The notes under the pieces: model-generated
Told to the model about the DNA's origin: nothing
Databases searched by the model: none
What the model saw: only the letters and a program-made list of their open reading frames with translations
Assembly: GCA_964510025.1 (NCBI GenBank)
Contig: CAZDZV010000001.1
Location: 63,949-127,948 of the forward strand
Direction of reading: 5' to 3'
From: an uncultured Methanosarcinales archaeon
Lineage (GTDB): Archaea > Nanobdellota > Nanobdellia > Woesearchaeales > DATDXC01
DNA length: 64,000 bases
Made by a program: the position numbers and the translations under genes
Shown: positions 3,724 to 45,623 of the stretch, in pieces
Numbering within the stretch: position 1 is the first letter of the stretch
Layout: every line of letters starts with the position of its first letter

Positions 3724-6700
3724 CTATCCAGAATCCAGGGTTATTGAGAGAGGGATATTAGCATAAAGCCAGTACCCCCTGCCAGAGCGGATGTTTTCAT
3801 CATCTGCAGGTACAAACTTGTATCTCTGGGCTGCAGGGTCAAAGTAATATATTGTTGATTGCAGCCAGCCTGCTGCCTGTGCTTCAGCCAATGATTTGGT
3901 CTCTATTCCATTAGAGACTTGGGCATCTGACCATAAAAACGTATTTCCAGGAGCAGACCCCCCTGCCTGCCCAAGGGTTATGACAATATCATCCTCAAAA
4001 GCATACAGCCAATATCCTGTTTTGGGCATTAGGTAATCATCATCGCCAGGCACGAATTTGTATCTCTGGGCTGCAGGGTCAAAGTAATATATTGTTGATT
4101 GCAGCCAGCCTGCTGCCTGTGCTTCAGCCAATGATTTGGTCTCTATTCCATTAGATACAATTGCGTCTCCCCAATCAAAGGCATTCATCGATGAATGCCC
4201 AAATAGATTCCAACCATCTGCTAGCAATATCTCCCTGTCTATATTCGACTCAAATGGCTGAAGCGCCGGGGTGAAAAGGTTCCAGGCTGCGTCGATCTCA
4301 ATATCATTTCCATCATGCTCACATATGCATGCGGAAGTGCATGTATCTACCGTATCTGGATTACTGTCATCGCAGTCTTCGTCTATTTCGCATGCTGCCC
4401 CGCATCTTGCCATATCACAGGCATGTGTAAATTGGTAATCATCAGGGGAAGGTAGGGTGCATGAATCTGCAGCTTCAAGGCATTCTGAGGCAATTCCTGC
4501 TGCATAATCCCATGTAAGCAGGTTATCATCCAGATTACAACCTTCTAGCTCCGGAAGGTCGTTTGATGAGCAGTCTACCGGTATACCTGGACCGCAGCCA
4601 AGATAGCTGCATTGCTCAGCGCCATTGCAATATTGACCATCATCGCAGACTGTGTGTTCTGGCGTGTTTACGCATTCACCTGAACTGCAGGAATCCAAGG
4701 TACAGGCTATATTATCATCACAATCAGGAATATTCACAGGCGCGCATTGCGAAATTTCCGAACAGATTTCCTGACCATTGCAGTCATTGGAGTCATCGCA
4801 GTCATCTGTTGATTCTGTAGAATCAAAATAAACCGCTCCGTTTAGGCAAGTTGCGCATGTCCCTGCGTCATCATAGTCAGTGCTGCAGTCTGACCAAACA
4901 CCGTATTCACATATCCTGGTGCCTTGGCATACGCCTGTTCCGCAGTCTTCAGTGATATGATCCACATCCCAGTCATTATCATTATCGATACCATCGCATA
5001 CTTCTTCACCTGAGAACTCAGCATATACAAATTCCGGCCCCCCTTCCAAGCCAAGTGCGCCAGTTATAGAGCCGTCATACCATGATAAGGTGTCAGATGG
5101 AAATGGCCTCGGTATTGTCTGAGAATAAAGCCAGATGTCACCTGAAAACTCATCTTCTCTCCAGAGTTCTGCGAAAAATACTCCATCATTATATGTAAAT
5201 GTAAGCATCGGTTCATATCCTGGTGAGAATTGAGAGTACTCTTTTTTCCAGTCAATCTGGCAGGTATCTTCCTCTGCATTCTCCTGACATCCTTCAAAAA
5301 CATAATATCCTTCAATCTCATAACTAAAATCCGGAAGCAGATAGACATCTACAGATGCCTGTTCTGGGTTGCAACAGTTGCTTACAAAAATCCCTGTTCC
5401 ATCCCACCTATATAGAACATCTCTAGATTTATTATAGAATCCGTCTTTATCAACATCAACAACTATATCATAAGAACCAATTCTGGGATTTTCCCAGATC
5501 ATAGATATGTTAATCTCACCATCTGCAGTTGTAGTCATATTATAAGGTCCATCATCGGTCCTATCTTCTAATTGGCTACCGTCTTCAATATCTGTTGATT
5601 CCCATTTCAGATATATATCGATTGACTTATTTACTTCAAATCCTGCCCCCTTCACGTAGACGGGCTCTACCTTGCTAAATTTTGTCTTAAAATTTCCTTT
5701 TGAGTCACATGGTACTATAGCTTGCACTCTGAATCCATAGTTATCATACTTATCAACTAAATCTGTATTGTAATCAAAGTTCCCATTATTATCGAAATCA
5801 AGAATTAGATTATATCTGCCACCCGTTTCAACAATATACTGCGCCGGTATTTCTCTGTTTAATATATGTTTATTTGATCCTGTATCGAGTATTTTTTTAT
5901 TGGATATTGTTCCATCCGGCTGCGTATGTATTGTCTGCATCCCAACAAAGTCAAAATCCATATCTACCTCTGCGGACCAGTTTATACTTTTGTTGTAAAC
6001 AATAACTGCGATTGTTACGTCCTTACTAGCAGGCAAACCTACCGCTTTAGCATATATTGTGTCACCATCTGTGAAATTGTAAGTATAATTTCCTGTCGCA
6101 TTAGTTGCATCAATGCCCAGGGTATTTGAAAAAATTAAGCCAAAAGGCTGACCACCTTTACCGCTAACATCTAGCAAACGGGAAGCTATCACTGTTATAT
6201 TGTAGAAGCCATCTTCTGGTTGTTTTAGGATTATCCTTTCTATAACATTGTTATTCAAATCTGAGTCTTTGGCAAAGGGATTTTCAGCTGAGTTTTTTCC
6301 ATCAGAGGTAAAGGTATTTCCGAGATATCTAGATCCGGTGGGAGATATGGCTTCCAAATCAAGATCATTCCTTAGAGCCTCTAATGGTTTGTCATGCCAT
6401 GCTAAGGTTATCTTCAAGGGTTTTGATTTTGAGAACCGTGCAAAAAAAGAGACTGCTGAGTCTGTTGAAGCTAAGACTGTTTCATTTGCATCCATATAAC
6501 CAACTGTTGTGTGTCTGCCTAAAGGAAACAAAGATTCTGTTATATTGGCCCTGCCCCATCCTTCGCAAACATTGGGGTAGCCTGTACAATCCACTGGTTC
6601 TCTGATACTTGCACCTCGAAGCGTTGGCACGAACAGCTGGTCAGGCAGGTCTACTGCTCCATTTATTAAAAGGGCTTTTATTAATGGAGCGCTTGGCTTG

Positions 6701-9285: not shown

Positions 9286-10451
9286 CTTCCGACTTTATTC
9301 GGTAGCTTGTAGACCGTAAATTGTGGCGAATACACATCCTCAGCACCCAATCCAACTCTGGGTCCAAGACTGGTCATACCTCCTGCAAAAGACACATAAG
9401 CGACCTTTTCTTGAACTGCAAAGGCGGATGCTACACCCGTTACAGACGTTCTTGCCTGCTTTTGCTGCTGTAAAGCCTTTTCCAGCTGCTCTGTTGTGAC
9501 TATAACATGACCTTGCTGGTCGGCCAGACCATATTGTACCACAACCGGTGAACTTCCTACGGCAGATCCCCTAGGATGTGAAGCTATGTATAAAGAACCA
9601 TCAACATAGGCTAAGGCAGTTAGTCCTAGCTTTCCAGGTAACCGCTCAAGCTGATTTTGCACCCATTCCCTGGTTGATATAGCCACAATTTCATCCAATG
9701 GTTCATTCCTAATTCCTCCTGCCCCGTACAGTACACCACCAGCAAATGCTGTCCCTAAATGGGCGGCCGTGAAATATCCTTCTCTTTTTTGCAGTCGATT
9801 TAAGCGTGGTTTTGTTCCTGGTTCAAACTTCAATACCTCAAGGATATCGCTATAGGGTGTCTGCTTACTACCTGTTCTTCCACCTAAGATATATATTAAA
9901 CCGTCATCCCCTATAGTTGCAGAATGTGCGTATCTTGTTATTAAATCGGCCCCAATTGGTAAAGACTCACCTGTCTTAAGGTTCATAAGTTCCGCACTTC
10001 CTAAAACCTGTAGTTCATCCTCTTTTAAGGTATAACCCCCCAATATCAATAAATATTCATTGCCAATAGGTACAATAGCAGGTGATACTCTAGCTGTAGT
10101 CATCTGTGAGAACTCAGTCATCCTGTTTCTGCTCAGATCATATTTTTCAACAGATTTCAGAGCAGCTCTGCGAAAAGTGCTAGATTGTCTTTTCTGTCCT
10201 AGAATTTCAATCTCGCGGGTTTCTGCAACCCTAGCTAGACCACCAACTATGTAGGCGTTCTCTCCATTATTATCCCACAAGACAGCTGAATAGGCTCTTG
10301 GAGTAAGCATGCTAGCTATGGTAACTTCCAATTCAGACTGTGCCACGGGGGCTGGTGGCTGGTTGCCTCTACCCAAATCGACTGGAAGAGCAGCAAGAAC
10401 CAGCCCTAGTCCTGCTCCGCCGGCTCTTCGTAAGAATTGTCTCCTATCCAT
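9282..10451 (-). CDS. Tat-signal Kelch/beta-propeller repeat protein (galactose-oxidase-like fold)
   Basis: Twin-arginine signal MDRRQFLRRAGGAGLGLVLAALP. Repeated YxxGG/IYILGG Kelch-like blades. The stop overlaps the subtilase start (ATGA). GC is visibly higher than the neighbours. Confidence 0.65.
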   Translation of the reverse strand: MDRRQFLRRAGGAGLGLVLAALPVDLGRGNQPPAPVAQSELEVTIASMLTPRAYSAVLWDNNGENAYIVGGLARVAETREIEILGQKRQSSTFRRAALKSVEKYDLSRNRMTEFSQMTTARVSPAIVPIGNEYLLILGGYTLKEDELQVLGSAELMNLKTGESLPIGADLITRYAHSATIGDDGLIYILGGRTGSKQTPYSDILEVLKFEPGTKPRLNRLQKREGYFTAAHLGTAFAGGVLYGAGGIRNEPLDEIVAISTREWVQNQLERLPGKLGLTALAYVDGSLYIASHPRGSAVGSSPVVVQYGLADQQGHVIVTTEQLEKALQQQKQARTSVTGVASAFAVQEKVAYVSFAGGMTSLGPRVGLGAEDVYSPQFTVYKLPNKVGR

Positions 10452-10872: not shown

Positions 10873-11577
10873 TTACCTAGAAGCCTTTCTTTTTCTGGGT
10901 TTTTTCTTGTAAACATAACCTCTCAAGAATTTTACCCCCAAATAAACAAATGGTGTATCCAGAAGGGCTACGCAAACTTTCAATGCCCAATAGGGTATAA
11001 TCAGGACAAACAAATAGGCAACATTAAATTTTGGATTTGTATTCAATGCTGCTGGAACAAACGAAAAAGGAAGGTAATAAAGGGCTATAAACATAAATAC
11101 TACTGTGTCGATAAACTGGGAGATCATAGTGGAAAGGTTATTCCTAAGCCAAAGAAACTTTCCCTTGGTCTTTTCCTTCCAGAAGTTAAATGACCAGATA
11201 TCGTGCATCTGGCTTACCAAGAATGCTATGATGCTGGCAATGAAAAACCTGATGCTTATGCCGAAAACCTTAGTATATTCTTCTGCCTGCACATAACTCC
11301 TATCAGCGTACGGCAGCCAGACTGATAAGGCTGTCATAGACAAAATGAAAAACATAGACAAGAAGCCTACCCATACGAATTGCTTTGTTTTTTCTTTGCC
11401 GTGCACTTCTGCTATGACATCTGTAATAAGAAAGGTCAGGGGATAGGCGAAAATTCCGACTGAGAATTGGACAAAACCTAGCTGTGCAATCTTTGAACCG
11501 AGCAGACTAGCTGCAACCAAAGAAGATGCAAATAACCCCAAAAAAAGATTTGTCTTGGTTTCCAGGTTCCACCTCAT
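10873..11577 (-). CDS. VUT/YhhQ-family membrane transporter (putative queuosine/7-deazaguanine precursor transporter)
   Basis: Multi-TM protein with YPLTFLITDVIAEVHGK, matching the conserved YhhQ/COG1738 ITD..E.YG block. A paralog is at 21000-21713. Confidence 0.6.
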   Translation of the reverse strand: MRWNLETKTNLFLGLFASSLVAASLLGSKIAQLGFVQFSVGIFAYPLTFLITDVIAEVHGKEKTKQFVWVGFLSMFFILSMTALSVWLPYADRSYVQAEEYTKVFGISIRFFIASIIAFLVSQMHDIWSFNFWKEKTKGKFLWLRNNLSTMISQFIDTVVFMFIALYYLPFSFVPAALNTNPKFNVAYLFVLIIPYWALKVCVALLDTPFVYLGVKFLRGYVYKKKPRKRKASR

Positions 11578-11598
11578 AACAAAACCGAGTTTTATGGC

Positions 11599-12369
11599 TT
11601 ATTTATAATCTTTTCTGTTAGATTTTATAAAGAAGATAAGGGCGCTGACAAATATAAGCAGATAGACTATCTGCTCTATAGTAAGCCCAAGGATAAAGCC
11701 ATATTGGTCTGCAATCTTAAAGAAACCTAGCAAAAACCTTGACAGTGAATACAGAAGCAGAAAGACCAGCAACATGGTTCCAGTCTTGCTCTTTCTTTTA
11801 GTAAGACTTAAGAGAAATAAGAAAATCATAAACAAAGCTATACTATTATAAAGCTGGACCGGATGCCGAAATCCTGCGTGAGACGGGAATTTGACAGCCC
11901 ATGGCACTGATGCTAATCTTCCTACAAATTCACTGTTGATGAAATTAGCTATCCTGCCCAAAGCTAATGCCAGAGGAAGAGGGACCACACATATGTCCAT
12001 CATCCTAAAAAAGTCCATCTTTTTTTTCTTGCAGTAAATATACAGAGCTACGATAGCGCCCAGAAAGCCGCCCAGAAATATTAGTCCGCCTTCCCAGACA
12101 GCCAATATCTTAAGAGGATTTCTGATAAAGTAAGGAATATTGTAGAAAACGAAAAAAAGCCTCGCACCTGATACTGTGCCAACTATCAAATAGAATATAA
12201 GGTCCATAATCTCATCCTTATCCAGATCTATCTTTTTCCGGCTGACTAAGTTCCTGATCATGAAATACGCGATTATGAAACCCAAAGCATAGATTACGCC
12301 ATAATACCTAATCTCCAGAAATCCAATTTTCAAAAGAGTTGGATTAATGCTATGGATGAACACCTTCAA
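11599..12369 (-). CDS. lgt: Prolipoprotein diacylglyceryl transferase homolog
   Basis: Blocks align with E. coli Lgt. YGVIYALGFIIAY corresponds to YGLMYLVGFIFAM. GARLFFVFYN...ILAVWEGGLIFLGGFLGA corresponds to GGRIGYVLFYN...FRVWDGGMSFHGGLIG. LGRIANFINSEFVGR corresponds to AGRLGNFINGELWGR. HPVQLYN corresponds to HPSQLYE. Confidence 0.8.
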   Translation of the reverse strand: MKVFIHSINPTLLKIGFLEIRYYGVIYALGFIIAYFMIRNLVSRKKIDLDKDEIMDLIFYLIVGTVSGARLFFVFYNIPYFIRNPLKILAVWEGGLIFLGGFLGAIVALYIYCKKKKMDFFRMMDICVVPLPLALALGRIANFINSEFVGRLASVPWAVKFPSHAGFRHPVQLYNSIALFMIFLFLLSLTKRKSKTGTMLLVFLLLYSLSRFLLGFFKIADQYGFILGLTIEQIVYLLIFVSALIFFIKSNRKDYK

Positions 12370-14481: not shown

Positions 14482-14847
14482 CTATCCCACTTTTATCTCT
14501 TTTGAATATTCCCATAATCCATGGAGATTGCACCTTATCTTTGCTTTCAGGACATGACTTTCATTCAGGCTTATATTAAGCGTCACCTTGGGTGAACCTA
14601 CAACCGGAATAAGATCTGCCCTGCTTATGAACAGGTCGTCTGCTGACAGTTCAATCCATTCTATATAGTGGGTATTCAGATTTGGATGCTGCAGTAGTTT
14701 GCCTACTTCTATTGTAACCGCAAATTGCTCCCCTTGATTCACCTTGTCCGGGCATTCTATTATTGGAATGTGCTTTTTTTCTAGGTCTTCAAGATTATCC
14801 ATATCTTTCGGCCTATTTATCTTCAAAAAAAGATTTTCTTCTGCCAT
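14482..14847 (-). CDS. sor: Superoxide reductase (neelaredoxin-type)
   Basis: KKHIPIIECP and HPNLNTHYIEWIEL match the SOR EKHVPVIE and H..E.HYI.WIEL blocks. The start is taken at the internal Met (MAEENLF) just after the upstream stop at 14852. The long ORF extension is probably spurious. Confidence 0.7.
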   Translation of the reverse strand: MAEENLFLKINRPKDMDNLEDLEKKHIPIIECPDKVNQGEQFAVTIEVGKLLQHPNLNTHYIEWIELSADDLFISRADLIPVVGSPKVTLNISLNESHVLKAKIRCNLHGLWEYSKEIKVG

Positions 14848-14851
14848 GGTA

Positions 14852-15355
14852 TCATCCTCCGTCTGCGATCCATTTTTCTTCTTTGCTGTAGAAACCCTCG
14901 GGATCCTTGATAAATTGGTAAGCCTTATCAATGAGCTCATAATGCGCATTTTCCTGAGCCATAATCCATTTAAAGAACTCCTTAAGCTTTTGGTCATCTG
15001 CTGCTTCATACTGTTGCTTATAGAAGTCATAGGACTTTTTCTCCAATTCAAGCCCGGTTTCATGTGCCTTTAGGTCATCTTCACTCAGCTCTGTTTTTTC
15101 CTTGAACTCCCTGATAGTCATGGAAAAAAACTGCTTGGTCTGCTCAAGCTTGTCTCCTTTCAACTCAATCTGCTTTGTTTTCATATAGCCTTTAAGTTCA
15201 TCTATATGATTTAGCTCTTCGTCAGCAAGATAGCTGAATGTTTTTTCCACAATTGGATTATCGGTAGTCTCTGCTGCTTTTGTATATATGCTATGCCCTT
15301 TTTCCTCAAAATCAATAGCTGTCTTCAGTGCTGTTTTCAAGTCCATTTTATTCAC
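14852..15355 (-). CDS. Rubrerythrin/ferritin-like diiron protein (no rubredoxin domain)
   Basis: Paired E..H motifs: EEKGHSIY, EELNHIDEL, AQENAHYELI. Confidence 0.55.
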   Translation of the reverse strand: MNKMDLKTALKTAIDFEEKGHSIYTKAAETTDNPIVEKTFSYLADEELNHIDELKGYMKTKQIELKGDKLEQTKQFFSMTIREFKEKTELSEDDLKAHETGLELEKKSYDFYKQQYEAADDQKLKEFFKWIMAQENAHYELIDKAYQFIKDPEGFYSKEEKWIADGG

Positions 15356-15397
15356 CTCATTCGGCTGTAGGTAGATATGATTTAATAAGCTTTTGTT

Positions 15398-15886
15398 CTA
15401 TTTTCTCTCCCCCAGAGCTCGGTCCAGCATAAGCAGGCCCTGAGGTGAGTCTTTTATCATCTTAAGCTTCTGGACTATCGCATCGGTCTGCTCTTCTTCT
15501 TCAACCTGCTCGTCCACAAACCACTGCAGCATGGAAAAGGCAGGCTTGTCGTCTTCTTCTTGTGCGAGGTCAACTAAGCTGCTAATCATTCCAGTTACCT
15601 TTACCTCATGGTCGTATACTGCCTGAAAGGCTTCAAGGGGAGATTTCCAGCTTTTAGGGGGCGCATCTATCTTATCTAGAACAACTGCCCCACCCCTTTC
15701 TACAATATGCTTATAGAATCTCATAGCATGCTCCTGCTCCTCCTTCGCCTGCTGCCTCATCCAGCCTGCAAATCCACCCAGGTTAAGGGATTCGAAGTAT
15801 GCAGACATAGACAGGTACATATATCCTGAATATAGCTCTGCATTTATCTGCTTGTTAAGTTCTTGTTCTATTTTTTTGCCTATCAT
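15398..15886 (-). CDS. ftn: Ferritin
   Basis: NAELYSGYMYLSMSAYFES...QEEQEHAMRFYKHIVERGG is a ferritin-like diiron helix bundle, about 160 aa. Confidence 0.7.
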   Translation of the reverse strand: MIGKKIEQELNKQINAELYSGYMYLSMSAYFESLNLGGFAGWMRQQAKEEQEHAMRFYKHIVERGGAVVLDKIDAPPKSWKSPLEAFQAVYDHEVKVTGMISSLVDLAQEEDDKPAFSMLQWFVDEQVEEEEQTDAIVQKLKMIKDSPQGLLMLDRALGERK

Positions 15887-16469
15887 TTTTTTTTACCTCC
15901 TCAAATATGCCTTCAAAGACTATATCTTTAAGGCCTTTCCTATCAGATGGGAATTCCTCCTGCTGTAGCTGCTCTGGAAGATCTTCCTTTTTACCTGGTT
16001 TTCCAATAGCAATCATAGCCTCTATTGCATAGGCCCCTGGCAGATTGATAACATCCCTTGCTTTCTCATAATCAAATCCTTGCATACCATGTGCGACAAC
16101 CCCAATTTTTGAGGCTTGCAGAGCCAAATTTTCCCATGCGGCGCCGGTATCGAATGAATGAGTAATAGACGGCCGCCCATCATAATCAAAGGTTTTTTTT
16201 GACGCCACAACAGCCAGGACTGCTGCCTTCCTAGCCCAGATTTTGTTTCCCTCTGTCAGCAAACTGAAGAAATCATCCCAGTAGCCAGTCCCTTTTCTAG
16301 CATATATGAATCGCCAAGGTTGATTATTATAGGAAGAAGGAGCCCATTTTGCTGCTTCAAATAGACTCATCAGCTCTCTATCTTCCAATGGCTCTTCAGA
16401 TAAAGCTCTAGGAGACCACCTATCAAGAAATATGTGTTCAATTTGGTATTCGGGTTTTCTCATCCTCAA
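15855..16469 (-). CDS. Nitroreductase-family NAD(P)H oxidoreductase
   Basis: RWSPRALSEEPLEDRELMSLFEAAKWAPSSYNNQPWRFIY is the nitroreductase FMN-binding signature. Confidence 0.75.
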   Translation of the reverse strand: MRMRKPEYQIEHIFLDRWSPRALSEEPLEDRELMSLFEAAKWAPSSYNNQPWRFIYARKGTGYWDDFFSLLTEGNKIWARKAAVLAVVASKKTFDYDGRPSITHSFDTGAAWENLALQASKIGVVAHGMQGFDYEKARDVINLPGAYAIEAMIAIGKPGKKEDLPEQLQQEEFPSDRKGLKDIVFEGIFEEVKKNDRQKNRTRT

Positions 16470-17062
16470 TAGTTCCTCTTGTGCAACAATATCCTGTTTA
16501 TATCATGAGTATCATCCGGCATCTCAGCTGGCTGGTTTGCCAACTCATCATAAGGATTGGATATAGGTGAATCGGCCTCTGGCTCTGGCTGGTACAGATT
16601 TACGGAACCAGTCATATAGGATCCTTCCAGGCTCCTTATCCCGTAGGAATTGGCCACATCAGACTGCGAAATCCTTGCTTTATAGAAATTAGCACCACCA
16701 AAGTCCGAGCCTGATAGGTTTGTACCTACAATCCTAGAATAGGAGAAATCCGAGCCGCCAATGTCTAATCCGCTAAAATCCGAACCCGAAATATCCATGC
16801 CTGTAAAATTTGTATCTCTAAGGCTATTTCCTGTGAGATTAACTTTCCGTATGTTACTGTCAATTTCTTCCGCATGTCCCAGATTCCTAATGATAATCTC
16901 GTTTAATCTTCCTTTGTTATCTATTGATATCTGAATTGTACCGGAGAGTCTGCCCTTCCGCAGTTTTTCTATCAGTTCATTGATTGTTTTTGTGTCCATA
17001 TTAAATAGTAAGCTGCAACTGCTTATAATAGCTCCTGTCTTTGCGCCTGTTTTTCCTGACAC
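16466..17062 (-). CDS. Pentapeptide-repeat protein
   Basis: Tandem A(D/N)LSG-type pentapeptides: NLTGNSLRDTNFTGMDISGSDFSGLDIGGSDFSYSRIVGTNLSGSDFGGANF. Confidence 0.7.
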   Translation of the reverse strand: MSGKTGAKTGAIISSCSLLFNMDTKTINELIEKLRKGRLSGTIQISIDNKGRLNEIIIRNLGHAEEIDSNIRKVNLTGNSLRDTNFTGMDISGSDFSGLDIGGSDFSYSRIVGTNLSGSDFGGANFYKARISQSDVANSYGIRSLEGSYMTGSVNLYQPEPEADSPISNPYDELANQPAEMPDDTHDINRILLHKRNY

Positions 17063-17359
17063 TTCAGACAGTAGTATAATGCCGCTGCATCCTTTTCCCC
17101 TAGTTTTTTGTTACACAACCTACAGTGTTTATTCATCTTGACCTCCAAGAAAAAGAAAAAAAATATTTAAAGCTTTTAGCAACATCCGCCTCCTCCCATT
17201 TTCTACTCACCTCCGCAGATAATCAACTGCCTTTTCTTCAGTATAAAGTATCATAATGTTATATAAATTTAGTTACTATAATAAATAAACATATATTATA
17301 ATTTTTTTATAATTTATAGTAAAATATATAAATATTCTTCTACTTCTCTATAATTTATA
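17063..17359. promoter_or_regulatory. AT-rich divergent intergenic region with TATA-like boxes
   Basis: About 300 bp at over 75% AT between divergent genes. Contains aaaatatataaatatt and tttataa immediately upstream of the ATG at 17360 (leaderless-type). Confidence 0.3.
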
Positions 17360-17920
17360 ATGAAGAATGAAATGAACTTCCAAAAAATCGAGGATTTTAA
17401 GAAAAAGATACAAATAAATGAAAAACTAGGATTGGATAGGAAAGATAATATGATTTTATCCCTTATCCAAAATAAACCCAACATATCTCAGATAGAAATC
17501 GGGGAGAAGATAAAATTATCGCAGCCATCTGTCGGGGCAAGGTTAAGGAAGCTAAGGGATAGAGGCATATTATGCCTCAACAGCGGGATGAATTTCAAGA
17601 CAGTTGACCTGAAATTAGCTAAGATAGACATAAACGCAAGCAATATCCAAGCGGTCTTGGGAGAATTTAAGGACTGCCCTTTCTTTATCAATGCGCTTAT
17701 AACTTCCGGCAGATACAATCTGGTGCTGTTCTTTGCTGCGACAGACCTAAAAAGGCTTGAGGGCATAGTCAACTGTCACCTCAGGGACAACCCTAAAGTG
17801 AAAGATATTGAACTTAACGTAGTGATATCTGTAGATAGAGACCTTATCCTGCCACTGAACATAGATTATGAAAACAAAAACCAGATAAACTGCGAGCAGA
17901 AGTGCGCTGACCTTATCTAG
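17360..17920 (+). CDS. Lrp/AsnC-family transcriptional regulator
   Basis: HTH ISQIEIGEKIKLSQPSVGARLRKLRDRGIL followed by a RAM-like C-terminal domain. Confidence 0.55.
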   Translation: MKNEMNFQKIEDFKKKIQINEKLGLDRKDNMILSLIQNKPNISQIEIGEKIKLSQPSVGARLRKLRDRGILCLNSGMNFKTVDLKLAKIDINASNIQAVLGEFKDCPFFINALITSGRYNLVLFFAATDLKRLEGIVNCHLRDNPKVKDIELNVVISVDRDLILPLNIDYENKNQINCEQKCADLI

Positions 17921-18471
17921 CTGCAGATTTCACAGTCTTCCTTGAAGCACATGCATTCCGGCTCAAAATATTCTTTAGGGTGTTGACATGATGGGCACCT
18001 AGCTGGGGGTTCCTTCCCTGTATGGATATATCCGCATTTAGAGCATTTCCATCTTATCGGCTTATCCCTTTTATAGACAGTGTTATCCTCTAACATCGCT
18101 AGCAGCTTTTTATATCTGGCTTCATGCTCTGCCTCTACCTTTGCTATCATCCTGAACTTTTTTGCAGCTTCTGAATTCCCTTCTTCCTCTGCCTTTTCAG
18201 CAAATTGAGGATACATATCTACTGTCTCATGATGCTCTCCAGCAATAGCCTCTTGCAGATTTTTCCTTGTATCACCTATACCTTTAAGCAGCTTGAACTC
18301 GTCTTTTGCATGCTGTTTCTCATTCACCGCTGTCTCTTCAAAGATTTTCGCAATATAGTGATATCCTTCCTTTCTGGCCACCTTAGCGAAAAAGTCATAC
18401 TTGTTTCTTGCCTGACTTTCACCAGCAAACGCTTCTTTCAGATTTCTTTCAGTTTTAGAGATTTTTATCAT
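17917..18471 (-). CDS. rbr: Rubrerythrin
   Basis: Diiron ERNLKEAFAGESQARNKY...EKQHAKDEF...EAEHEARYKK. C-terminal rubredoxin-like CSKCG...CPSC. Confidence 0.8.
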   Translation of the reverse strand: MIKISKTERNLKEAFAGESQARNKYDFFAKVARKEGYHYIAKIFEETAVNEKQHAKDEFKLLKGIGDTRKNLQEAIAGEHHETVDMYPQFAEKAEEEGNSEAAKKFRMIAKVEAEHEARYKKLLAMLEDNTVYKRDKPIRWKCSKCGYIHTGKEPPARCPSCQHPKEYFEPECMCFKEDCEICS

Positions 18472-18543: not shown

Positions 18544-19110
18544 ATGTTAGACAAAAAAAATTTTTCCAAGATAAGGGAAAATCTTGAAAGATATGACAAG
18601 CAAAGAGAAGAATTAATAAAAAAAGCAAGGGATGTTCTTAGACTATCGAAAAGACTGATATATTCTCTACACAGGCAGGATGAAGGGGAAACAGCAAAAC
18701 TTCTCAAAGAGGTTAAAAGAGAAAAACAAAAATTAGACAGAATAGCCTATGGAGACAAGAAACTATTTTCAGAAGGCAGCTACAGCCATGCCATGCAAGA
18801 ATATGCCGAAGCCTTATGCTACTATGGATTTAACAAAAAAAGGAAGATACCGAATGTAGCTGAACTTAAAATGAGCCAGGAAGATTATCTCATGGGGATC
18901 TGCGATCTTACGGGGGAGCTTGCAAGGAAGGCTGTCACTGTTGCACATAAAAATAAAAAAGAAGTAGAGGAGATCAAGAATTTCATTGAAAATGTATACG
19001 GTGAGTTTATCAAGTTTAATCTAAGGAACAGTGAGTTAAGAAAGAAGTCTGATTCTATAAAATGGAACCTAAAAAAGCTTGAAGAGCTTAGCTATGATAT
19101 CAATAAGTAA
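18544..19110 (+). CDS. Translin-family protein
   Basis: SKRLIYSLHR and DYLMGICDLTGELAR resemble translin SKR.IF.LHR and YL.G.ADLTGELMR. Confidence 0.5.
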   Translation: MLDKKNFSKIRENLERYDKQREELIKKARDVLRLSKRLIYSLHRQDEGETAKLLKEVKREKQKLDRIAYGDKKLFSEGSYSHAMQEYAEALCYYGFNKKRKIPNVAELKMSQEDYLMGICDLTGELARKAVTVAHKNKKEVEEIKNFIENVYGEFIKFNLRNSELRKKSDSIKWNLKKLEELSYDINK

Positions 19111-19126
19111 TCTTTAAATAAAGCTG

Positions 19127-20344
19127 TTGTTTCTAGAAAAAAGTATGTTTAGATTTAAAATAAAGGAAGAACATGGAAAGGCCCGTTTGGGAGCCATTAT
19201 TACGAAGCATGGCAGCTTTAAAACCCCTGCCTTTATCCCGGTAGCTACTTCCGCTACTGTAAGGGGCCTTGACAACAGGGACATAAAGGAAATTACGGAT
19301 GTGGTATTAGCTAATACTTATCATCTGCATCTAAGACCTGGAGACGATATTATCAAAAAGCAGGGAGGGTTACACAAGTTTATGGGCTGGGACAAGCCTA
19401 TTGTCACAGACTCAGGTGGATTCCAGGCATTCAGCCTAGGTCTAGCTGTTGAACATAGGGTTGGCAAAATGGCTGATAATTATCTTGATTTTAGCAACAA
19501 AAAACACCAGATAAGATTGGAGCAAGAAAAGAAATTCGCAAAAGTTGACGATAATGGGGTGGTATTCAAGGATCCTATAGATGGAAGCAGACATAAGCTG
19601 ACAGCTGAAAGCTCCATGAAGATTCAATCCAACCTGGGAGCAGATATTATCTTTGCTTTTGATGAGTGCACATCTCCATTATCCGATAAGGAGTATACGA
19701 CCAAGGCCTTAAAAAGAACGCACAGGTGGGCGCTGAAATGCCTGGAATGCTATGATAAGAGGCAGGCCTTGTTCGGCATTGTGCAGGGAGGGATGTACAA
19801 GGACTTACGTGTCAAAGCCGCAGAATTTATAGGTAAGCTTGATTTTGATGGCTTTGGGATAGGTGGTTCTCTTGGTAAGTCTAAGACAGATATGCACCAA
19901 ATACTTGAATGGTCGCTGCCCATTTTACCTGAGCAAAAACCCAGGCATCTTCTTGGCATAGGGGGTGTCGAAGACCTGTTTAATTCTGTAGAAAGAGGTA
20001 TAGATATGTTTGACTGTGTGGCTCCAACAAGATGGGCAAGGCGCGGGCATGTCTATATCTCTCCTGAATCAGGGGGCAAGCCGAAAAACAAATTCAGGTT
20101 CAACATAGAAAATAAGAGGTATGAAAATGACAGCAGGCCAATAGACAAGAATTGCAGCTGCTATGCCTGCCAGAACCATTCAAGGGCGTATTTAAGGCAC
20201 CTGTTCAAAGCAAGCGAGCTGACATATTTCAGGTTGGCTTCTGTGCATAACCTTAGCTTTATCCTAAATCTTATGAAAGATATCCGCCAGTCTATCGAAG
20301 AAAAAAGATTTCAAAAGCTAAAGAAAAAGTGGCTAATCTGTTAG
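19127..20344 (+). CDS. tgt: tRNA-guanine transglycosylase (catalytic core only, no PUA domain)
   Basis: HGSFKTPAFIPVATSATV, FMGWDKPIVTDSGGFQAFSLG and GIGGS motifs. Zn site CSCYACQNHSRAYLRHL. 405 aa. Confidence 0.8.
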   Translation: MFLEKSMFRFKIKEEHGKARLGAIITKHGSFKTPAFIPVATSATVRGLDNRDIKEITDVVLANTYHLHLRPGDDIIKKQGGLHKFMGWDKPIVTDSGGFQAFSLGLAVEHRVGKMADNYLDFSNKKHQIRLEQEKKFAKVDDNGVVFKDPIDGSRHKLTAESSMKIQSNLGADIIFAFDECTSPLSDKEYTTKALKRTHRWALKCLECYDKRQALFGIVQGGMYKDLRVKAAEFIGKLDFDGFGIGGSLGKSKTDMHQILEWSLPILPEQKPRHLLGIGGVEDLFNSVERGIDMFDCVAPTRWARRGHVYISPESGGKPKNKFRFNIENKRYENDSRPIDKNCSCYACQNHSRAYLRHLFKASELTYFRLASVHNLSFILNLMKDIRQSIEEKRFQKLKKKWLIC

Positions 20345-20956
20345 GAAATACTCACATAGCGTCCTCAGGGGAAGATAATAAAGCATGCTGTGCCTTTGGT
20401 TTAATTTTGGAAATTCCGTGACAGGTATATCTTTGTCAAGGAAATTGCATAATTTTTTCCATCCTTCGCCCTGGCATATATTCAGCACCAGCAGGTCTTC
20501 TTTTCTATCCTTGAAATATGAACTAACATCCCTTATATGCGCCTCATAGGCTTTTCTGAATATCTTCCTATCAAACCCAGCTGATTTGTAAAGATCAAGA
20601 TCTACCTTTCTCCCTTTCTTAAAGACTTTCATAAAAGCAGCCCACTTAAGAAGCTTAAGGTTTTCACACATTTTACCTATAGAACCTAACCAGCTGTCTA
20701 TGTCCCGGACAGTCAGGATAAACTTTGAGTTAGGAAAACTCTTGTCCAGCTTCTTATAAAACCTTGTTATTGGTGTGTCGGTCAGTGCATCGAATTTTGC
20801 AACTCTTTTGAGGTCAATCCAGAGCTTGCCGTCTCTCATCCGAATCATGCGTATAGGATAATGGATAGACTTATAGCCGAGCACTTTCAGAGCTTCTGTC
20901 AGACTTACTGTAGCTGTCCTTGACAAACCAATGCCGAATACCTTGCTGGTAGCCAT
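20333..20956 (-). CDS. Putative sulfotransferase (Sulfotransfer_4-like P-loop)
   Basis: N-terminal KVFGIGLSRTATVSL resembles the PAPS-binding GxGLxRTGTxSL motif. 207 aa. Confidence 0.4.
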   Translation of the reverse strand: MATSKVFGIGLSRTATVSLTEALKVLGYKSIHYPIRMIRMRDGKLWIDLKRVAKFDALTDTPITRFYKKLDKSFPNSKFILTVRDIDSWLGSIGKMCENLKLLKWAAFMKVFKKGRKVDLDLYKSAGFDRKIFRKAYEAHIRDVSSYFKDRKEDLLVLNICQGEGWKKLCNFLDKDIPVTEFPKLNQRHSMLYYLPLRTLCEYFLTD

Positions 20957-20999
20957 GGAATTCTCAAAAATGTATTTTGTATTAAAATCTTTCGTTTAG

Positions 21000-21713
21000 C
21001 TAAGTGGATTTTTTAAGGTGCTTTTTATATATGTGTCTGCTCCAATATACAAACGGAGTGTCAAAGAGGGCTACGAGTAATTTCATGACATAGGATACAA
21101 GAAAAATCTGCAAGACAATGTTCCATTCAAAGAGCTGATTCCATCCAAAAAGCCCAAAAAAGCCGATAAAAGCAATCCATGTGAAGATTATATTATCAAG
21201 CAACTGTGATGTCATTGTTGAAATGTTATTTCTGAGCCACAGGTATCTGCCTTTAAAGACCTTTTTCCAGAAATCAAATGCCCATATATCGTGATTCTGG
21301 GAGACCAGGTATGCAGCCAAACTTGCGAAAGCAATCCTAGGCAAAAAACCAAATATCCGTTCCAATGCGGGACTTAGCGTATCTGTTTCATGGGGTATGA
21401 AGCCAAGGCAGATCTGCATTACAATCGCTACTGTAATGAGGATAAAAAAACCTAGCCATACTGCCTTCTTAGCCTGCTTTTCCCCGTAATTCTCATTCAA
21501 TATGTCAGTAACCAGAAAGGTGGTGCCATACACGATGTTTCCCAAAGCAGTAACCCAGAAAAAAATCTGTACAGTTTTCATAACCTGGATATTTGCGACG
21601 ATTATTGCCATAGTCATCCAGCTGTATAATCCAAGCTTGCCAAAAAACCTATAAGCCAGAATTATACCTAAGAAACTGACCAGCATCAGCAGCATCCATA
21701 GCAGCTCATTCAT
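21000..21713 (-). CDS. VUT/YhhQ-family membrane transporter (paralog of the 10873-11577 gene)
   Basis: FLVTDILNENYGEKQAKK plus an equivalent TM layout. The C-terminal DTPFVY motif is shared with the paralog. Confidence 0.6.
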   Translation of the reverse strand: MNELLWMLLMLVSFLGIILAYRFFGKLGLYSWMTMAIIVANIQVMKTVQIFFWVTALGNIVYGTTFLVTDILNENYGEKQAKKAVWLGFFILITVAIVMQICLGFIPHETDTLSPALERIFGFLPRIAFASLAAYLVSQNHDIWAFDFWKKVFKGRYLWLRNNISTMTSQLLDNIIFTWIAFIGFFGLFGWNQLFEWNIVLQIFLVSYVMKLLVALFDTPFVYWSRHIYKKHLKKST

Positions 21714-21799
21714 CAGGTCATGTAAATCGAGCTGCTATTAAAGTTTATCGGAAAGCTTAACAATAAACTTTATAAATGCTTTTGCAAATCTCTTCATTA

Positions 21800-23545
21800 A
21801 TGAAACGGACTCATAACTGCGGCCAGTTGTCTAGAAAAGATACTGGCAAACAGGTGGCCCTGAGCGGATGGATGCATTCAAGAAGGGATCATGGAGGAAT
21901 TATCTTTGTGGACCTGAGAGACAGGTATGGGCTTACCCAGGTCGTCTTTGATCCCAAACACAATAAACAAGTGCATGCCGAAGCAGAGCATCTTAGGCGG
22001 GAAGATGTCATCATCGTAGAAGGAAAAGTCAGACCCAGAGGCAAAGGACTGGAGAATCCTAAGCTAAAAACAGGTGAGATTGAAGTCCTGGTGGATAAGT
22101 TAACTGTAGTAACGAGAGCTGAAACGCCGCCCATCGAGATAGATGATAAGAAGATTGCCAATGAAGACGTCAGGCTAAGATATAGGTATCTTGATCTAAG
22201 AAGACCTCAGATGCAGAAGCATTTGAGAATAAGGCATGAAGCTGCGCAGGCTGCCAGGGAATTCTTCAACAAAAATGGTTTTTTAGAGATAGAGACCCCT
22301 ATTCTTGTGAGGGCAACCCCAGAAGGGGCCAGGGACTATGTGGTTCCATCAAGAGTTAGTCCTGGAAAATTTTATGCTCTTCCACAAAGCCCTCAGCTAT
22401 ACAAGCAGATATTGATGATTTCAGGTGTTGACAGGTATTATCAGATCGCAAGATGCCTAAGGGATGAAGATCTGAGAGCTGACAGACAGCCAGAGCATAC
22501 CCAGATAGACCTAGAAATGAGCTTTGTTGATGAGAAGGATATAATGGAAACTGTTGAAAGTATGTACAAACATATCTTCAAAAAAGTATTGAAAATAGAA
22601 CTAAGAGAAAAATTTCCGATTTTTAGCTATAAGGAAGTGATGGATCGTTACGGGACAGATAAACCTGATATAAGATTTGGGCTTGAGTTAAAGGATGTTA
22701 GCTCTGTTGTTGCCAGATCAGATTTCACTGTTTTTAAGGATGCAATAAAGAAAGGAGGGGTAGTCAAGTGCATAAATCCTGAAAAGGAAATCTCCCGAAA
22801 AGAGATAGACAGCCTTATTGAACTAGCGCAGCAGTGCGGAGCAAAAGGCATGGCATGGATGCGGGTTACAGAAAAAGGGCTAGAGAGCAATATTGCAAAA
22901 TATTTCAATGAAGAAATACAGAAAGATCTGATTAAGCTAACAGAGGCTAAACCGGGCTCTGTCTTGATGTTTGTTGCAGATAAGGAGAAAACCTCTAATG
23001 AGGTCCTCTCTGCCTTAAGAAAAGAGCTTGGTAAAAGACTTGGTTTAATCGACGAAAAAGAGTTTCGGTTCTGCTGGATAGTAGATTATCCTTTGTTTGA
23101 GAGGGATGAGGATAGTTGGACACCTGCCCACCATATGTTTTCGATGCCCAAGGAAGAATGCTTAGGATACCTAGAGAAGGAGCCCGGCAAGGTGACAGCC
23201 AACCTATTCGATATTGTCCTGAACGGCAGTGAACTAGGCTCAGGCAGCATGAGAATTCATGACCCAGAGGTACAGGAGAAGGTTATGAAGGTCATTGGAT
23301 TATCACATGAAGAAGCGCAGAAGAAATTTGGTTTTTTGCTGGAAGCATATAGATACGGAGCACCTATGCATGGTGGTATGGGGCTGGGATTCGATAGATT
23401 GGTAGCTATAATGCTTGGTTATGATGATATCAGAGAAGTAATTGCCTTTCCAAAAAACAAGAATGCTGAATGCCCTATGGATGGCTCGCCTTCTCAAATT
23501 GACCCAGAACAGCTCAAAGATCTGCATATAAAGACAACTAAGTAG
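21800..23545 (+). CDS. aspS: Aspartyl-tRNA synthetase, bacterial-type length (with GAD-like insertion)
   Basis: MKRTHNCGQL start resembling bacterial MRTHYCG. Class II motifs. About 580 aa, compared with about 430 aa for typical archaeal AspRS. Confidence 0.85.
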   Translation: MKRTHNCGQLSRKDTGKQVALSGWMHSRRDHGGIIFVDLRDRYGLTQVVFDPKHNKQVHAEAEHLRREDVIIVEGKVRPRGKGLENPKLKTGEIEVLVDKLTVVTRAETPPIEIDDKKIANEDVRLRYRYLDLRRPQMQKHLRIRHEAAQAAREFFNKNGFLEIETPILVRATPEGARDYVVPSRVSPGKFYALPQSPQLYKQILMISGVDRYYQIARCLRDEDLRADRQPEHTQIDLEMSFVDEKDIMETVESMYKHIFKKVLKIELREKFPIFSYKEVMDRYGTDKPDIRFGLELKDVSSVVARSDFTVFKDAIKKGGVVKCINPEKEISRKEIDSLIELAQQCGAKGMAWMRVTEKGLESNIAKYFNEEIQKDLIKLTEAKPGSVLMFVADKEKTSNEVLSALRKELGKRLGLIDEKEFRFCWIVDYPLFERDEDSWTPAHHMFSMPKEECLGYLEKEPGKVTANLFDIVLNGSELGSGSMRIHDPEVQEKVMKVIGLSHEEAQKKFGFLLEAYRYGAPMHGGMGLGFDRLVAIMLGYDDIREVIAFPKNKNAECPMDGSPSQIDPEQLKDLHIKTTK

Positions 23546-45088: not shown

Positions 45089-45585
45089 CTTATCTCCTTA
45101 AACTGGGATTTTTTCGCTCCGCAGATTGGGCAGGTATCTGGAGCATCAGCTTCAACAGTGTTTCCACAGACCTGGCATACAAATACCCTCTCTTGGTTCA
45201 GATCTCTCTCTGATTCCAGCGCTTCCAGTGCTTTCTTATACAGTCCTGCATGTATCTCTTCAACTTTATTTGCCCTAAAAAAAGATATATGGGCATCCTG
45301 GTGTTTATCGTCTTTAGCATCCTGAATCATCCCAGGGTACATGTTCTGGAACTCATGGGTTTCCCCCTCTATCGCTTCTTTTAGATTTTGCTTCGTAGAT
45401 CTAATCCCGCCCATTGCTTTTAGGTGCTCGATTGCGTGGACAGTCTCGGCATCAGCTGCGGCCCTAAAAAGTTTTGCAATTTCCTTTAACCCCTCCTTCT
45501 CCGCCTGATCGGCAAAAGCAATATATTTTCTGTTTGCCTGACTCTCTCCGGCAAATGCTTTTTTTAGATTTCCTTCAGTTTTCAT
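45085..45585 (-). CDS. rbr: Rubrerythrin
   Basis: EGNLKKAFAGESQANRKY diiron domain plus C-terminal CQVCG...CPICG. Start taken at MKTEGNL. Confidence 0.75.
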   Translation of the reverse strand: MKTEGNLKKAFAGESQANRKYIAFADQAEKEGLKEIAKLFRAAADAETVHAIEHLKAMGGIRSTKQNLKEAIEGETHEFQNMYPGMIQDAKDDKHQDAHISFFRANKVEEIHAGLYKKALEALESERDLNQERVFVCQVCGNTVEADAPDTCPICGAKKSQFKEIR

Positions 45586-45623
45586 CCTTCGCCCCCGAAT
45601 GCCACAAATAGCAAACATCCTAG

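Follow-up and report, generated by a model that had tools for sequence, protein, structure and literature searches.

Queuosine-type 7-deazaguanines occupy tRNA position 34 in Bacteria and Eukarya, archaeosine occupies position 15 in Archaea, and we know of no archaeon for which a position-34 7-deazaguanine has been shown experimentally. Among the closest described systems is the Chlamydia trachomatis pair of a q-specific bTGT and a q-specific QPTR (PMC11570991, PMC11130926); the combination of tgt and QPTR without queA, queG, or queH is the layout shown there for direct queuine salvage, although Bartonella henselae provides a counterexample to the gene-content rule that tgt alone means queuine (PMC11570991). 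Escherichia coli YhhQ transports preQ0 (PMC5372724), and Actinomycetota with short-loop TGTs related to those discussed below are predicted queuine salvagers (PMC11130926). Castelle et al. 2021 have already reported queuosine genes of bacterial type from DPANN archaea, as well as from Methanosarcinales, and describe co-localised QueA, QueH, and Tgt (PMC8204110).

The locus described here resembles those of Castelle et al. in that a bacterial-type Tgt is found in a Woesearchaeota/Pacearchaeota-like genome rich in other bacterial genes, but differs in the company it keeps: there Tgt is found with QueA and QueH, whereas it is YhhQ that accompanies the Tgt of this locus and of 8 related contexts, with no QueA in the vicinity, and neither the YhhQ linkage nor the altered pocket is mentioned in the available portions of the main text (PMC8204110). 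We consider it probable (about 0.7) that the locus is a salvage module of two genes, bacterial in origin and carried by a Woesearchaeota-like DPANN archaeon, through which an imported 7-deazaguanine is inserted at G34. The YhhQ/QPTR permease would take up a 7-deazaguanine base that other organisms produce, and the bacterial-type TGT would exchange the encoded guanine for it; we infer position 34 as the target from sequence homology, which points to G34 of tRNA-Asp, -Asn, -His, and -Tyr, whose anticodon loops contain U33-G34-U35. Coordinates within the window, by which we mean the whole 64-kb stretch of DNA analysed, are collected in the table.

Table. Genes of the TGT locus and of the second YhhQ locus, with the profile matches that identify them
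Feature	Position	Strand	Identification
Second YhhQ/QPTR paralog	10873..11577	-	PF02592 3e-49 (167.7 bits)
Lgt	11599-12369		adjoins second YhhQ paralog
Translin/TRAX-like (archaeal C3PO-type)	18544..19110	+	PF01997 3e-29, 102.8 bits (cut-off 25.9)
Bacterial-type tRNA-guanine transglycosylase (Tgt)	19145..20344	+	399 aa, ATG start; PF01702 1.5e-134 (449 bits)
Sulfotransfer_4 small-molecule sulfotransferase	20333..20956	-	PF17784 1.7e-39, 136 bits (cut-off 22.8)
YhhQ/QPTR (COG1738, Vut_1), TGT-linked orthologue	21000..21713	-	PF02592 4e-53 (180 bits)
Bacterial-type AspRS with GAD domain	21776..23545	+	NF001750 835 bits (cut-off 443)

The ATG at 19145 is the TGT start in the identical NCBI protein (P0001, 100%, 399 aa) and in all homologues; a TTG at 19127 is an alternative start that would give 405 aa (19127-20344). 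Curated HMM cut-offs, sequence matches in the PDB, and the predicted fold all identify the protein as a complete Tgt(34) of bacterial type and not as an ArcTGT that has lost its PUA domains. Specifically, i) like the Zymomonas mobilis and E. coli enzymes, it matches TIGR00430 (bacterial Tgt(34)) along its whole length and above the curated cut-off (521.2 bits, cut-off 306.75), but falls below the cut-offs of both other families, scoring 126.6 bits against TIGR00432 (ArcTGT, cut-off 350) and 21.3 bits against the DpdA model NF041059 (cut-off 200), while the PADLOC DpdA match (24.7 bits across some 105 residues) is a superfamily-level likeness only; ii) its PDB sequence matches are Z. mobilis TGT at 1e-95, human QTRT1 at 2e-72, and ArcTGT (1iq8) at 3e-16; and iii) its AlphaFold model (pLDDT 87.4, pTM 0.87) is aligned by Foldseek with Z. 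mobilis TGT at a TM score of 0.85-0.91 and an rmsd of 1.6-2.1 A, and consists of a (beta/alpha)8 barrel and a C-terminal Zn subdomain, after which the chain ends. The superfamily barrel and zinc site are common to ArcTGT (TgtA) and DpdA as well, but the C1, C2, and PUA domains and any dpd neighbours are lacking; from bacterial Tgt the protein differs in its archaeal host and in having YhhQ as a partner instead of QueA. An earlier sequence-only reading of this DNA, all of whose genes we recovered at or near the positions it gave, had correctly described a TGT without PUA domains, but had framed it as an archaeosine TGT shorn of them and allowed for a DpdA-like enzyme; neither view is supported, and the TGT does not group with catalytic-only ArcTGTs. 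We know of no bacterial-type Tgt that has PUA domains.

The two VUT-like genes reported in the same reading, one beside lgt and the other some 650 bp from the TGT (655 bp from its stop), are indeed YhhQ/QPTR paralogs and are assigned to no other transporter family by HMM: the TGT-linked copy scores 231.7 bits against TIGR00697 (cut-off 50.95), but lies below the E. coli-type equivalog NF008406 (45.5 bits versus 252). The second paralog, 7.5 kb outside the 18544-21713 span, is a separate orthologous group, being 37% identical to the TGT-linked copy versus 70% to the Lgt-linked copy of contig L084.

Of 9 archaeal contexts, 8 have a YhhQ gene no more than 3 kb from the TGT (the window, L081/82, L083, L084, L085, the P0010 contig, L169, and L170), and QueA is near the TGT in none of the archaeal contexts examined. 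In the contingency table, which was restricted to loci flanked by at least 3 kb, QueA adjoins the TGT in 41/67 canonical bacterial, 2/24 short-loop bacterial, and 0/7 archaeal loci, and YhhQ does so in 0/67, 5/24, and 6/7, respectively. The TGT-linked YhhQ shares 63-74% identity with its TGT-adjacent counterparts in Archaeoglobus sulfaticallidus and in Woesearchaeal contigs, tracking the TGT identity (63-76%) across the same genomes. Because the pairing is conserved in distant archaea, a functional link between this one YhhQ and the TGT is supported.

The closest TGTs come from Woesearchaeota, Nanoarchaeota, Aenigmatarchaeota, and Archaeoglobus, including the cultured isolate A. sulfaticallidus PM70-1, and together form a monophyletic archaeal clade (NJ bootstrap 100) whose nearest bacterial relatives are CPR Parcubacteria. 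The short-loop TGTs of CPR/Patescibacteria, Actinomycetota, and Chloroflexi share with this clade an insertion after FQxFSLG and a deletion in the substrate loop, and are likewise often linked to YhhQ and rarely to QueA, but their loops (GGSFAKED, GGALEK, GGEFGDDK) differ and the archaeal clade stands apart from them (bootstrap 100).

We treat sulfotransferase, translin, and AspRS as neighbours of the pair rather than as established parts of the module. The translin gene (PDB matches: Nanoarchaeum equitans NEQ131, 2e-16; Archaeoglobus fulgidus AfTRAX, 3e-6) lies 34 bp upstream of the TGT ATG on the same strand, and is adjacent to or near the TGT in L083, L084, L085, and the P0010 contig, but not in A. 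sulfaticallidus, L169, or L170; it is a lineage-level neighbour conserved in Woesearchaeal relatives and probably no pathway member. AspRS, divergent from YhhQ across 62 bp and in the same place in L084, L085, and the P0010 contig, is also a lineage-level neighbour conserved in close relatives. The sulfotransferase overlaps the TGT stop convergently by the 12 bp already reported (20333-20344) and is probably cotranscribed with YhhQ, from which it is separated by a 43-bp gap on the same strand. Its best PDB match is a Schistosoma PAPS-dependent sulfotransferase (3e-14), and its GLSRTATVS aligns with the Schistosoma 5'-PSB loop GLPRTGTNS. No homologue was found in the 8 other archaeal TGT contexts, including 5 related Woesearchaeal/Archaeoglobus loci; the gene is present at the TGT locus only in the window and in contig L086 from its own read set, and is absent from L081-L085, L169, and L170. 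The nearest homologues are at most 52% identical, taxonomically scattered, and located in unrelated contexts (a GT4/polysaccharide deacetylase cluster in L087, pyrBI/HAD in L088). We judge that the sulfotransferase fills a variable slot between TGT and YhhQ and is not a module member, and the suggestion that it marks a novel modification step is not sustained.

On either side of the locus the window is archaeal in character (RadA, PolB, Topo VI, and ribosomal proteins of archaeal type) with GC flat near 0.40, and the host of the TGT-YhhQ pair is probably a Woesearchaeota-like DPANN archaeon. A fatty-acid gene block in the window fits DPANN genomes rich in bacterial genes. Within the 64 kb, Pfam scans covering practically every ORF of at least 110 aa found no queA/C/D/E/F/G/H or folE, phmmer found no QueA, Rfam found no preQ1 riboswitch, and no dpdB/dpdC or other dpd genes were seen, in agreement with the absence of preQ0 biosynthesis genes reported earlier; salvage, as then proposed, is therefore the natural reading. 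Since it was the window that was searched, the rest of the genome may contain queA, queH, queF, or genes for making preQ0.

Comparison of the TGT active site with that of Z. mobilis (whose numbering is given in parentheses) reveals intact catalysis-related residues around a rebuilt substrate loop. Thus, i) D89 and D290 align with the catalytic aspartates (Asp102, Asp280), D173, Q214, and G240-G241 with the base-binding residues (Asp156, Gln203, Gly229-Gly230), and C337/C339/C342/H368 with the Zn ligands (Cys318/Cys320/Cys323/His349) of a retained CxCxxC...H site, all of these and C175 (Cys158) being invariant across 60 clade members; ii) the preQ1-specificity loop Leu231-Ala/Ser232-Val233-Gly234-Glu235 is not conserved, the TGT having GG-SLGKSK where canonical Tgt has GGL[AS]VGE, with Leu231 deleted, Val233 changed to Leu, and Glu235 to Lys (K245) according to HMMER, MAFFT, and hhalign alike; iii) this loop is near-invariant among 120 clade members, K245 is conserved in at least 90% of the clade, and Lys or Arg at the Glu235 position is unique to it; and iv) there are insertions of about 30 aa after FQAFSLG (residues 100-131, low model confidence) and about 7 aa after the Asp280 strand, and PTRWARRG replaces the canonical PTRxxRNG.

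Given a loop shortened by one residue and with Lys for Glu235, base specificity probably differs from that of canonical bacterial Tgt. Glu235 runs the preQ1/guanine peptide switch and is needed to offer the Leu231 carbonyl to the preQ1 amine, so that its loss could disfavour both preQ1 and queuine, which both use the carbonyl-exposed state (PMC3660597). Queuine-specific TGTs of the eukaryotic QTRT1 or C. trachomatis type have Gly for Val233, a GG[LS][AS]G pocket, and Val for Cys158 (PMC11570991, PMC6165067), and Cys158 favours preQ1 over queuine in the E. coli and human enzymes (PMC3074131). The loss of Glu235 may thus tell against insertion of queuine or preQ1, and the retained Cys158 and the Leu, not Gly, placed at 233 by all three aligners tell against queuine. 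The archaeal and chlamydial pairs are alike in combining tgt with QPTR without queA or queG/H nearby, in having a non-canonical substrate loop, and in the likely dependence of the organism on others for the base, but the archaeal TGT matches GG[LS][AS]G (as GGSLG) only ungapped, keeps Cys158, loses Glu235, and is phylogenetically nearest CPR rather than chlamydial TGTs, and its specificity is a prediction. Queuine, inserted directly, is the leading candidate for the base, though short of an even chance; preQ1 is a doubtful second, preQ0 is unlikely, and some other base unlikelier still.

We regard it as unlikely that QueA and QueH/QueG, encoded in another part of the genome, instead turn salvaged preQ1 (or preQ0) fully into queuosine; this would be the usual bacterial late pathway moved into an archaeon, as in Castelle et al. 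In its favour, QueA, a QueH-like protein, and Tgt are reported as co-localised in 12 DPANN genomes (PMC8204110), and Cys158 is kept. Two further observations point the same way and against direct salvage: in the nearest bacterial relative, L005 from the CPR, a similar short-loop TGT adjoins QueA, and the TGT-linked YhhQ is 45-50% identical to the copy from an Izemoplasmatales locus with QueA and a canonical TGT. But QueA is missing from the window and adjoins the TGT in none of the tabulated archaeal-clade loci, as opposed to most canonical ones, and the clade has Lys in place of the Glu235 required for the Leu231 carbonyl-preQ1 amine contact.

To a like degree unlikely is that the enzyme is preQ0-specific and puts preQ0 at position 34, perhaps on the way to an undescribed modification, the base coming from the archaeal archaeosine pool or entering through YhhQ. 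Lys at 235 would hold the Leu231/Ala232-equivalent peptide NH toward the pocket, as in Z. mobilis E235Q, for which Tidten et al. reportedly found a selectivity swap in 2007, and the three independent alignments and the conservation of K245 agree with its equivalence to Glu235; yet residue equivalence is uncertain because of the one-residue deletion in the loop, and model pLDDT there is only about 68. Also against preQ0, we know of no organism that keeps it at position 34, and Archaeoglobus presumably makes its own, which would make a tightly linked dedicated importer less necessary. In its favour, the peptide-switch mechanism is described (PMC3660597) and the E. coli YhhQ carries preQ0 (PMC5372724). 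More broadly, though we think it improbable, archaea of two or more distant lineages (Woesearchaeota-type DPANN, Archaeoglobales) may keep their own Tgt clade that inserts neither preQ1 nor queuine at the wobble position, but for example preQ0 or an undescribed 7-deazaguanine obtained via the co-inherited YhhQ.

Far less likely is a catalytic-only archaeosine TGT that acts on G15 with salvaged preQ0 in place of canonical ArcTGT: the host is archaeal, DPANN genomes are reduced, and archaeal YhhQ homologues have been proposed to salvage preQ0 for archaeosine (PMC5372724), but family scores, PDB matches, and fold all favour bacterial TGT, and the clade also occurs in Archaeoglobus, a euryarchaeal group that should possess an ordinary ArcTGT, so that the bacterial-type TGT would be an addition, not a replacement. 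Hardly credible is a DpdA-like transglycosylase inserting preQ0 into DNA, or a new sulfotransferase-dependent step on the inserted base, since the weak, partial DpdA matches (21-25 bits) and the probable transcript shared by YhhQ with a PAPS-type small-molecule enzyme are outweighed by the DpdA cut-off, the lack of dpd genes in the window, and the absence of the sulfotransferase from every related TGT locus and its unrelated contexts elsewhere.

We wish to stress that a module which merely salvages queuine or preQ1 would modestly extend the findings of Castelle et al. 2021 and the bacterial salvage work, whereas a clade inserting neither would imply a previously unrecognised position-34 modification in archaea; the altered specificity loop is also a natural experiment on base choice by TGTs. 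The question is directly testable, as the cultured A. sulfaticallidus PM70-1, with a complete genome (CP005290), carries the pair. [quoted passage not shown]

In family, fold and catalytic apparatus the window TGT is a bacterial-type enzyme that is complete and, if anything, longer than usual, and not the archaeosine TGT without PUA domains that the sequence-only reading had proposed. Specifically, i) it scores 521 bits against the NCBIfam bacterial Tgt(34) equivalog (cut-off 307) but 127 bits against the ArcTGT model (cut-off 350); ii) among PDB sequences it matches Z. mobilis TGT at 1e-95 and human QTRT1 at 2e-72 but P. horikoshii ArcTGT at only 3e-16, and on both counts we rejected the ArcTGT assignment; iii) its AlphaFold model (pLDDT 87, pTM 0.87) overlays Z. 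mobilis TGT at TM 0.85-0.91 (rmsd 1.6-2.1 A); and iv) the catalytic aspartates, Asp156, Cys158, Gln203, Gly229-Gly230 and the four zinc ligands (Z. mobilis numbering) are present, and are invariant across the clade of this enzyme and its archaeal relatives. A DpdA-like enzyme, also entertained earlier, is dismissed by 21 bits against the NCBIfam DpdA model (cut-off 200) and by a PADLOC DpdA match of 25 bits over a fragment only. The PGAP annotation already calls these proteins Tgt.

ORF and Pfam scans recovered all of the genes first noticed here (translin, TGT, sulfotransferase and two YhhQ copies), and both VUT-like proteins do belong to the YhhQ transporter family (QPTR/Vut_1, PF02592), scoring well above the Pfam threshold. 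The TGT gene stands, but its product is more probably 399 than 405 aa long: the most likely start is the ATG at 19145, where every homologue begins, as does NCBI protein P0001, which is identical. Exact look-ups of both the 405-aa and the 399-aa form matched no contig on record. The stops of TGT and the sulfotransferase gene overlap by 12 bp. Pfam scans of essentially all window ORFs of at least 110 aa matched no queA, queC, queD, queE, queF, queG, queH or folE, in agreement with the earlier remark that the window holds no preQ0 biosynthesis genes; nor did a phmmer search find QueA, or an Rfam search a preQ1 riboswitch, in the window.

Positions of features in the window and in three contigs fetched for comparison (L084, L169, L170)
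Feature	Sequence	Position	Strand	Remarks
Subtilase-domain ORF, then Kelch-repeat protein	window	3724-10451		
Second YhhQ	window	10873-11577	-	beside Lgt; above Pfam threshold
Second YhhQ with Lgt	window	10873-12369		
Oxygen-defence cluster	window	14482-18471		
Translin-family gene	window	18544-19110	+	above Pfam threshold
TGT	window	19127/19145-20344	+	above Pfam threshold
Sulfotransfer_4 gene	window	20333-20956	-	above Pfam threshold
YhhQ/Vut_1 gene	window	21000-21713	-	above Pfam threshold
AspRS, bacterial-type with GAD domain	window	21776-23545		divergent from YhhQ, 62 bp between; NF001750, 835 bits
Lipid/fatty-acid block	window	28354-48452		
Third rubrerythrin	window	45085-45618		
Lgt-YhhQ linkage	L084	1784-4704		one gene in between
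Two membrane proteins	L169	9249-11263		TGT-YhhQ gap
Two membrane proteins	L170	9278-11294		TGT-YhhQ gap

A neighbour-joining tree (377 columns; eukaryotic, chlamydial, ArcTGT and DpdA sequences left out) unites the archaeal TGTs of Woesearchaeota, Aenigmatarchaeota, Archaeoglobaceae, Geoglobus and the isolate A. sulfaticallidus PM70-1 with a bootstrap of 100; their sister is a single Pacearchaeota sequence (bootstrap 93), and the nearest bacteria are CPR Parcubacteria. YhhQ lies within 3 kb of TGT in 8 of only 9 archaeal contexts, mostly contigs encoding archaeal TGT homologues: the window, Woesearchaeota B3_Woes, the related P0010 contig, L084, L085, L169, L170 and A. sulfaticallidus, where the two genes are directly convergent. 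Counting every fetched locus that has 3 kb or more of flanking sequence on each side, YhhQ adjoins TGT in 6/7 archaeal-clade loci and QueA in 0/7, compared with 0/67 and 41/67 canonical bacterial loci and 5/24 and 2/24 bacterial loci with a shortened substrate loop, the bacterial comparison set coming from contig scans with the universal GIDMFDCV pattern that yielded bacterial TGTs for the most part and just two archaeal loci. Identity among the TGT-linked YhhQ proteins is 63-74%, in parallel with that among the TGTs, but is only 37% to the window's other paralog. TGT and its linked YhhQ behave as if inherited together.

The other paralog adjoins a bacterial prolipoprotein diacylglyceryl transferase (Lgt) in this archaeon, and has a 70% identical, likewise Lgt-linked orthologue in L084. 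Archaeal YhhQ homologues have been assumed to serve archaeosine (Zallot et al. 2017, PMC5372724), and preQ0 for archaeosine is one possible substrate of this copy.

What lies between TGT and YhhQ varies by genome: the sulfotransferase in the window, an unrelated 258-aa protein in L084, a 200-aa protein in the P0010 contig, a PPIase in B3_Woes, nothing in L085, and in the Archaeoglobi-like contigs L169 and L170 two conserved polytopic membrane proteins of about 450 and 200 aa (78% and 73% identical between the contigs), which could be further transport components. The 258-aa protein, the L169/L170 pair (X and Y) and the neighbours in contig L083 have no Pfam match, and none resembles a window protein. 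By family and PDB similarity the sulfotransferase is a PAPS-type small-molecule enzyme, and the suggestion that it performs a novel modification step finds no comparative support: no related TGT locus encodes a homologue, and we therefore rejected it as a pathway step. Its best homologues (at most 52% identity) are scattered across archaea and bacteria, of the two that could be placed one adjoins a glycosyltransferase/deacetylase cluster and the other pyrBI, and the exact sequence recurs in one 1.8-kb read-set contig only. The translin-like protein resembles the archaeal C3PO nucleases NEQ131 and AfTRAX; because it lies at or near TGT only in Woesearchaeal relatives, we set it aside as a tRNA-processing partner and treat the linkage as lineage-level synteny. 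Its nearest NCBIfam models, all below cut-off, are named "haloacid dehalogenase superfamily protein" (PRK14562 series), apparently an outdated misnaming of archaeal translin/C3PO homologues. The AspRS, which L084, L085 and the P0010 contig carry at this position too, is near TGT only in Woesearchaeal relatives and is likewise treated as lineage-level synteny; with tRNA-Asp among the four Q-family tRNAs, the gene could conceivably have been transferred together with tgt and yhhQ.

The substrate loop sets the archaeal TGTs apart. HMMER, MAFFT and hhalign alignments agree on GG-SLGKSK in place of GGL[AS]VGE, with the Leu231 position missing, Leu at 233 and Lys at the Glu235 position, residue equivalences that are uncertain owing to the shortening (AlphaFold confidence there is about 68); 120 relatives carry the motif with hardly any variation. 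In Z. mobilis, Glu235 holds the Leu231/Ala232 peptide, carbonyl-exposed for preQ1 and NH-exposed for guanine (PMC3660597). An insertion of about 30 residues, modelled with low confidence, follows FQAFSLG, and a second, shorter one follows the Asp280 strand. CPR bacteria, Actinomycetota and a Chloroflexus relative have TGTs with both the loop deletion and the first of these insertions. Across CPR, Actinomycetota and Chloroflexi loci (L003-L058, L089-L151), insertions after FQxFSLG accompany shortened loops such as GGSFAKED, GGALEK and GGEFGDDK, seemingly a broad, under-described class.

The best-supported reading of the locus is a salvage module in which YhhQ would import a 7-deazaguanine base and TGT would insert it in place of G34 within the U33-G34-U35 loops of tRNA-Asp, -Asn, -His and -Tyr, a target position predicted by homology. 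Queuine is our leading candidate for the base, at a probability of roughly 0.4. Tgt and QPTR without queA or queG/H constitute the direct queuine route shown for C. trachomatis, with pocket signature GG[LS][AS]G (PMC11570991); queuine use is also predicted for related actinobacterial enzymes with short loops (PMC11130926), and a shorter loop would enlarge the pocket. Against queuine stand the retained Cys158 (PMC3074131), Leu rather than Gly at 233 according to the aligners, the QueA linkage of the nearest CPR relative, and the example of B. henselae, where gene content can mislead (PMC11570991). Insertion of preQ1 appears rather unlikely. Still less probable is preQ0. The lost Glu235 argues for an NH-exposed pocket, which would favour this base; Tidten et al. 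in 2007 reportedly found such a pocket in the E235Q variant of TGT. Some other base is the most doubtful choice.

The predicted salvage pair sits in an archaeon of DPANN type whose genome is rich in genes of bacterial type (Lgt, GpsA, PlsC-like acyltransferases and a fatty-acid block), as are genomes described by Castelle et al. 2021 (PMC8204110), and the named organisms with the nearest TGT homologues are Woesearchaeota and Nanoarchaeota. Genes for RadA, family-B DNA polymerase, Topo VI A/B, EndoMS-like and RIO proteins, archaeal ribosomal proteins and RNA polymerase subunit D flank the locus on both sides; with these, a flat GC near 0.40 and identical gene order in independent assemblies, an assembly chimera was rejected. 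The lipid/fatty-acid block comprises GpsA, two PlsC-like acyltransferases, ETF alpha/beta, acyl-CoA dehydrogenase, SDR/FabG-like, two thiolase-like and FabA/Z-like genes, biotin carboxylase, BCCP, carboxyltransferase and BirA-like genes, interleaved with 2-oxoacid:ferredoxin oxidoreductase subunits, and agrees with Woesearchaeota as Castelle et al. describe them. Elsewhere in the window, an oxygen-defence cluster encodes desulfoferrodoxin, two rubrerythrins, ferritin, nitroreductase, a pentapeptide-repeat protein and an Lrp/AsnC regulator; a third rubrerythrin adjoins a rubredoxin-fused glutamate-synthase-like protein; and a 1853-aa ORF, in which a subtilase domain is combined with thrombospondin-type repeats, probably encodes a large protease, secreted or on the surface, of a kind common in DPANN.

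Bacterial QueA, QueH-like and Tgt proteins are reported from 34 archaeal genomes, 12 of them DPANN, by Castelle et al. 2021 (PMC8204110), the one account of bacterial-type Tgt in archaea that we found among open-access papers and preprints; none of these described a YhhQ pairing or altered loop of archaeal Tgt, and the motif and family terms sought were absent from the supplementary tables of PMC8204110 and PMC11570991. What seems new is the pairing of Tgt with YhhQ, conserved in both Woesearchaeota and Archaeoglobales, the absence of QueA linkage at archaeal-clade loci, and a pocket specific to the archaeal clade. The main value of the finding is that the pair occurs in a cultured archaeon, A. 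sulfaticallidus, and the question can therefore be settled at the bench.
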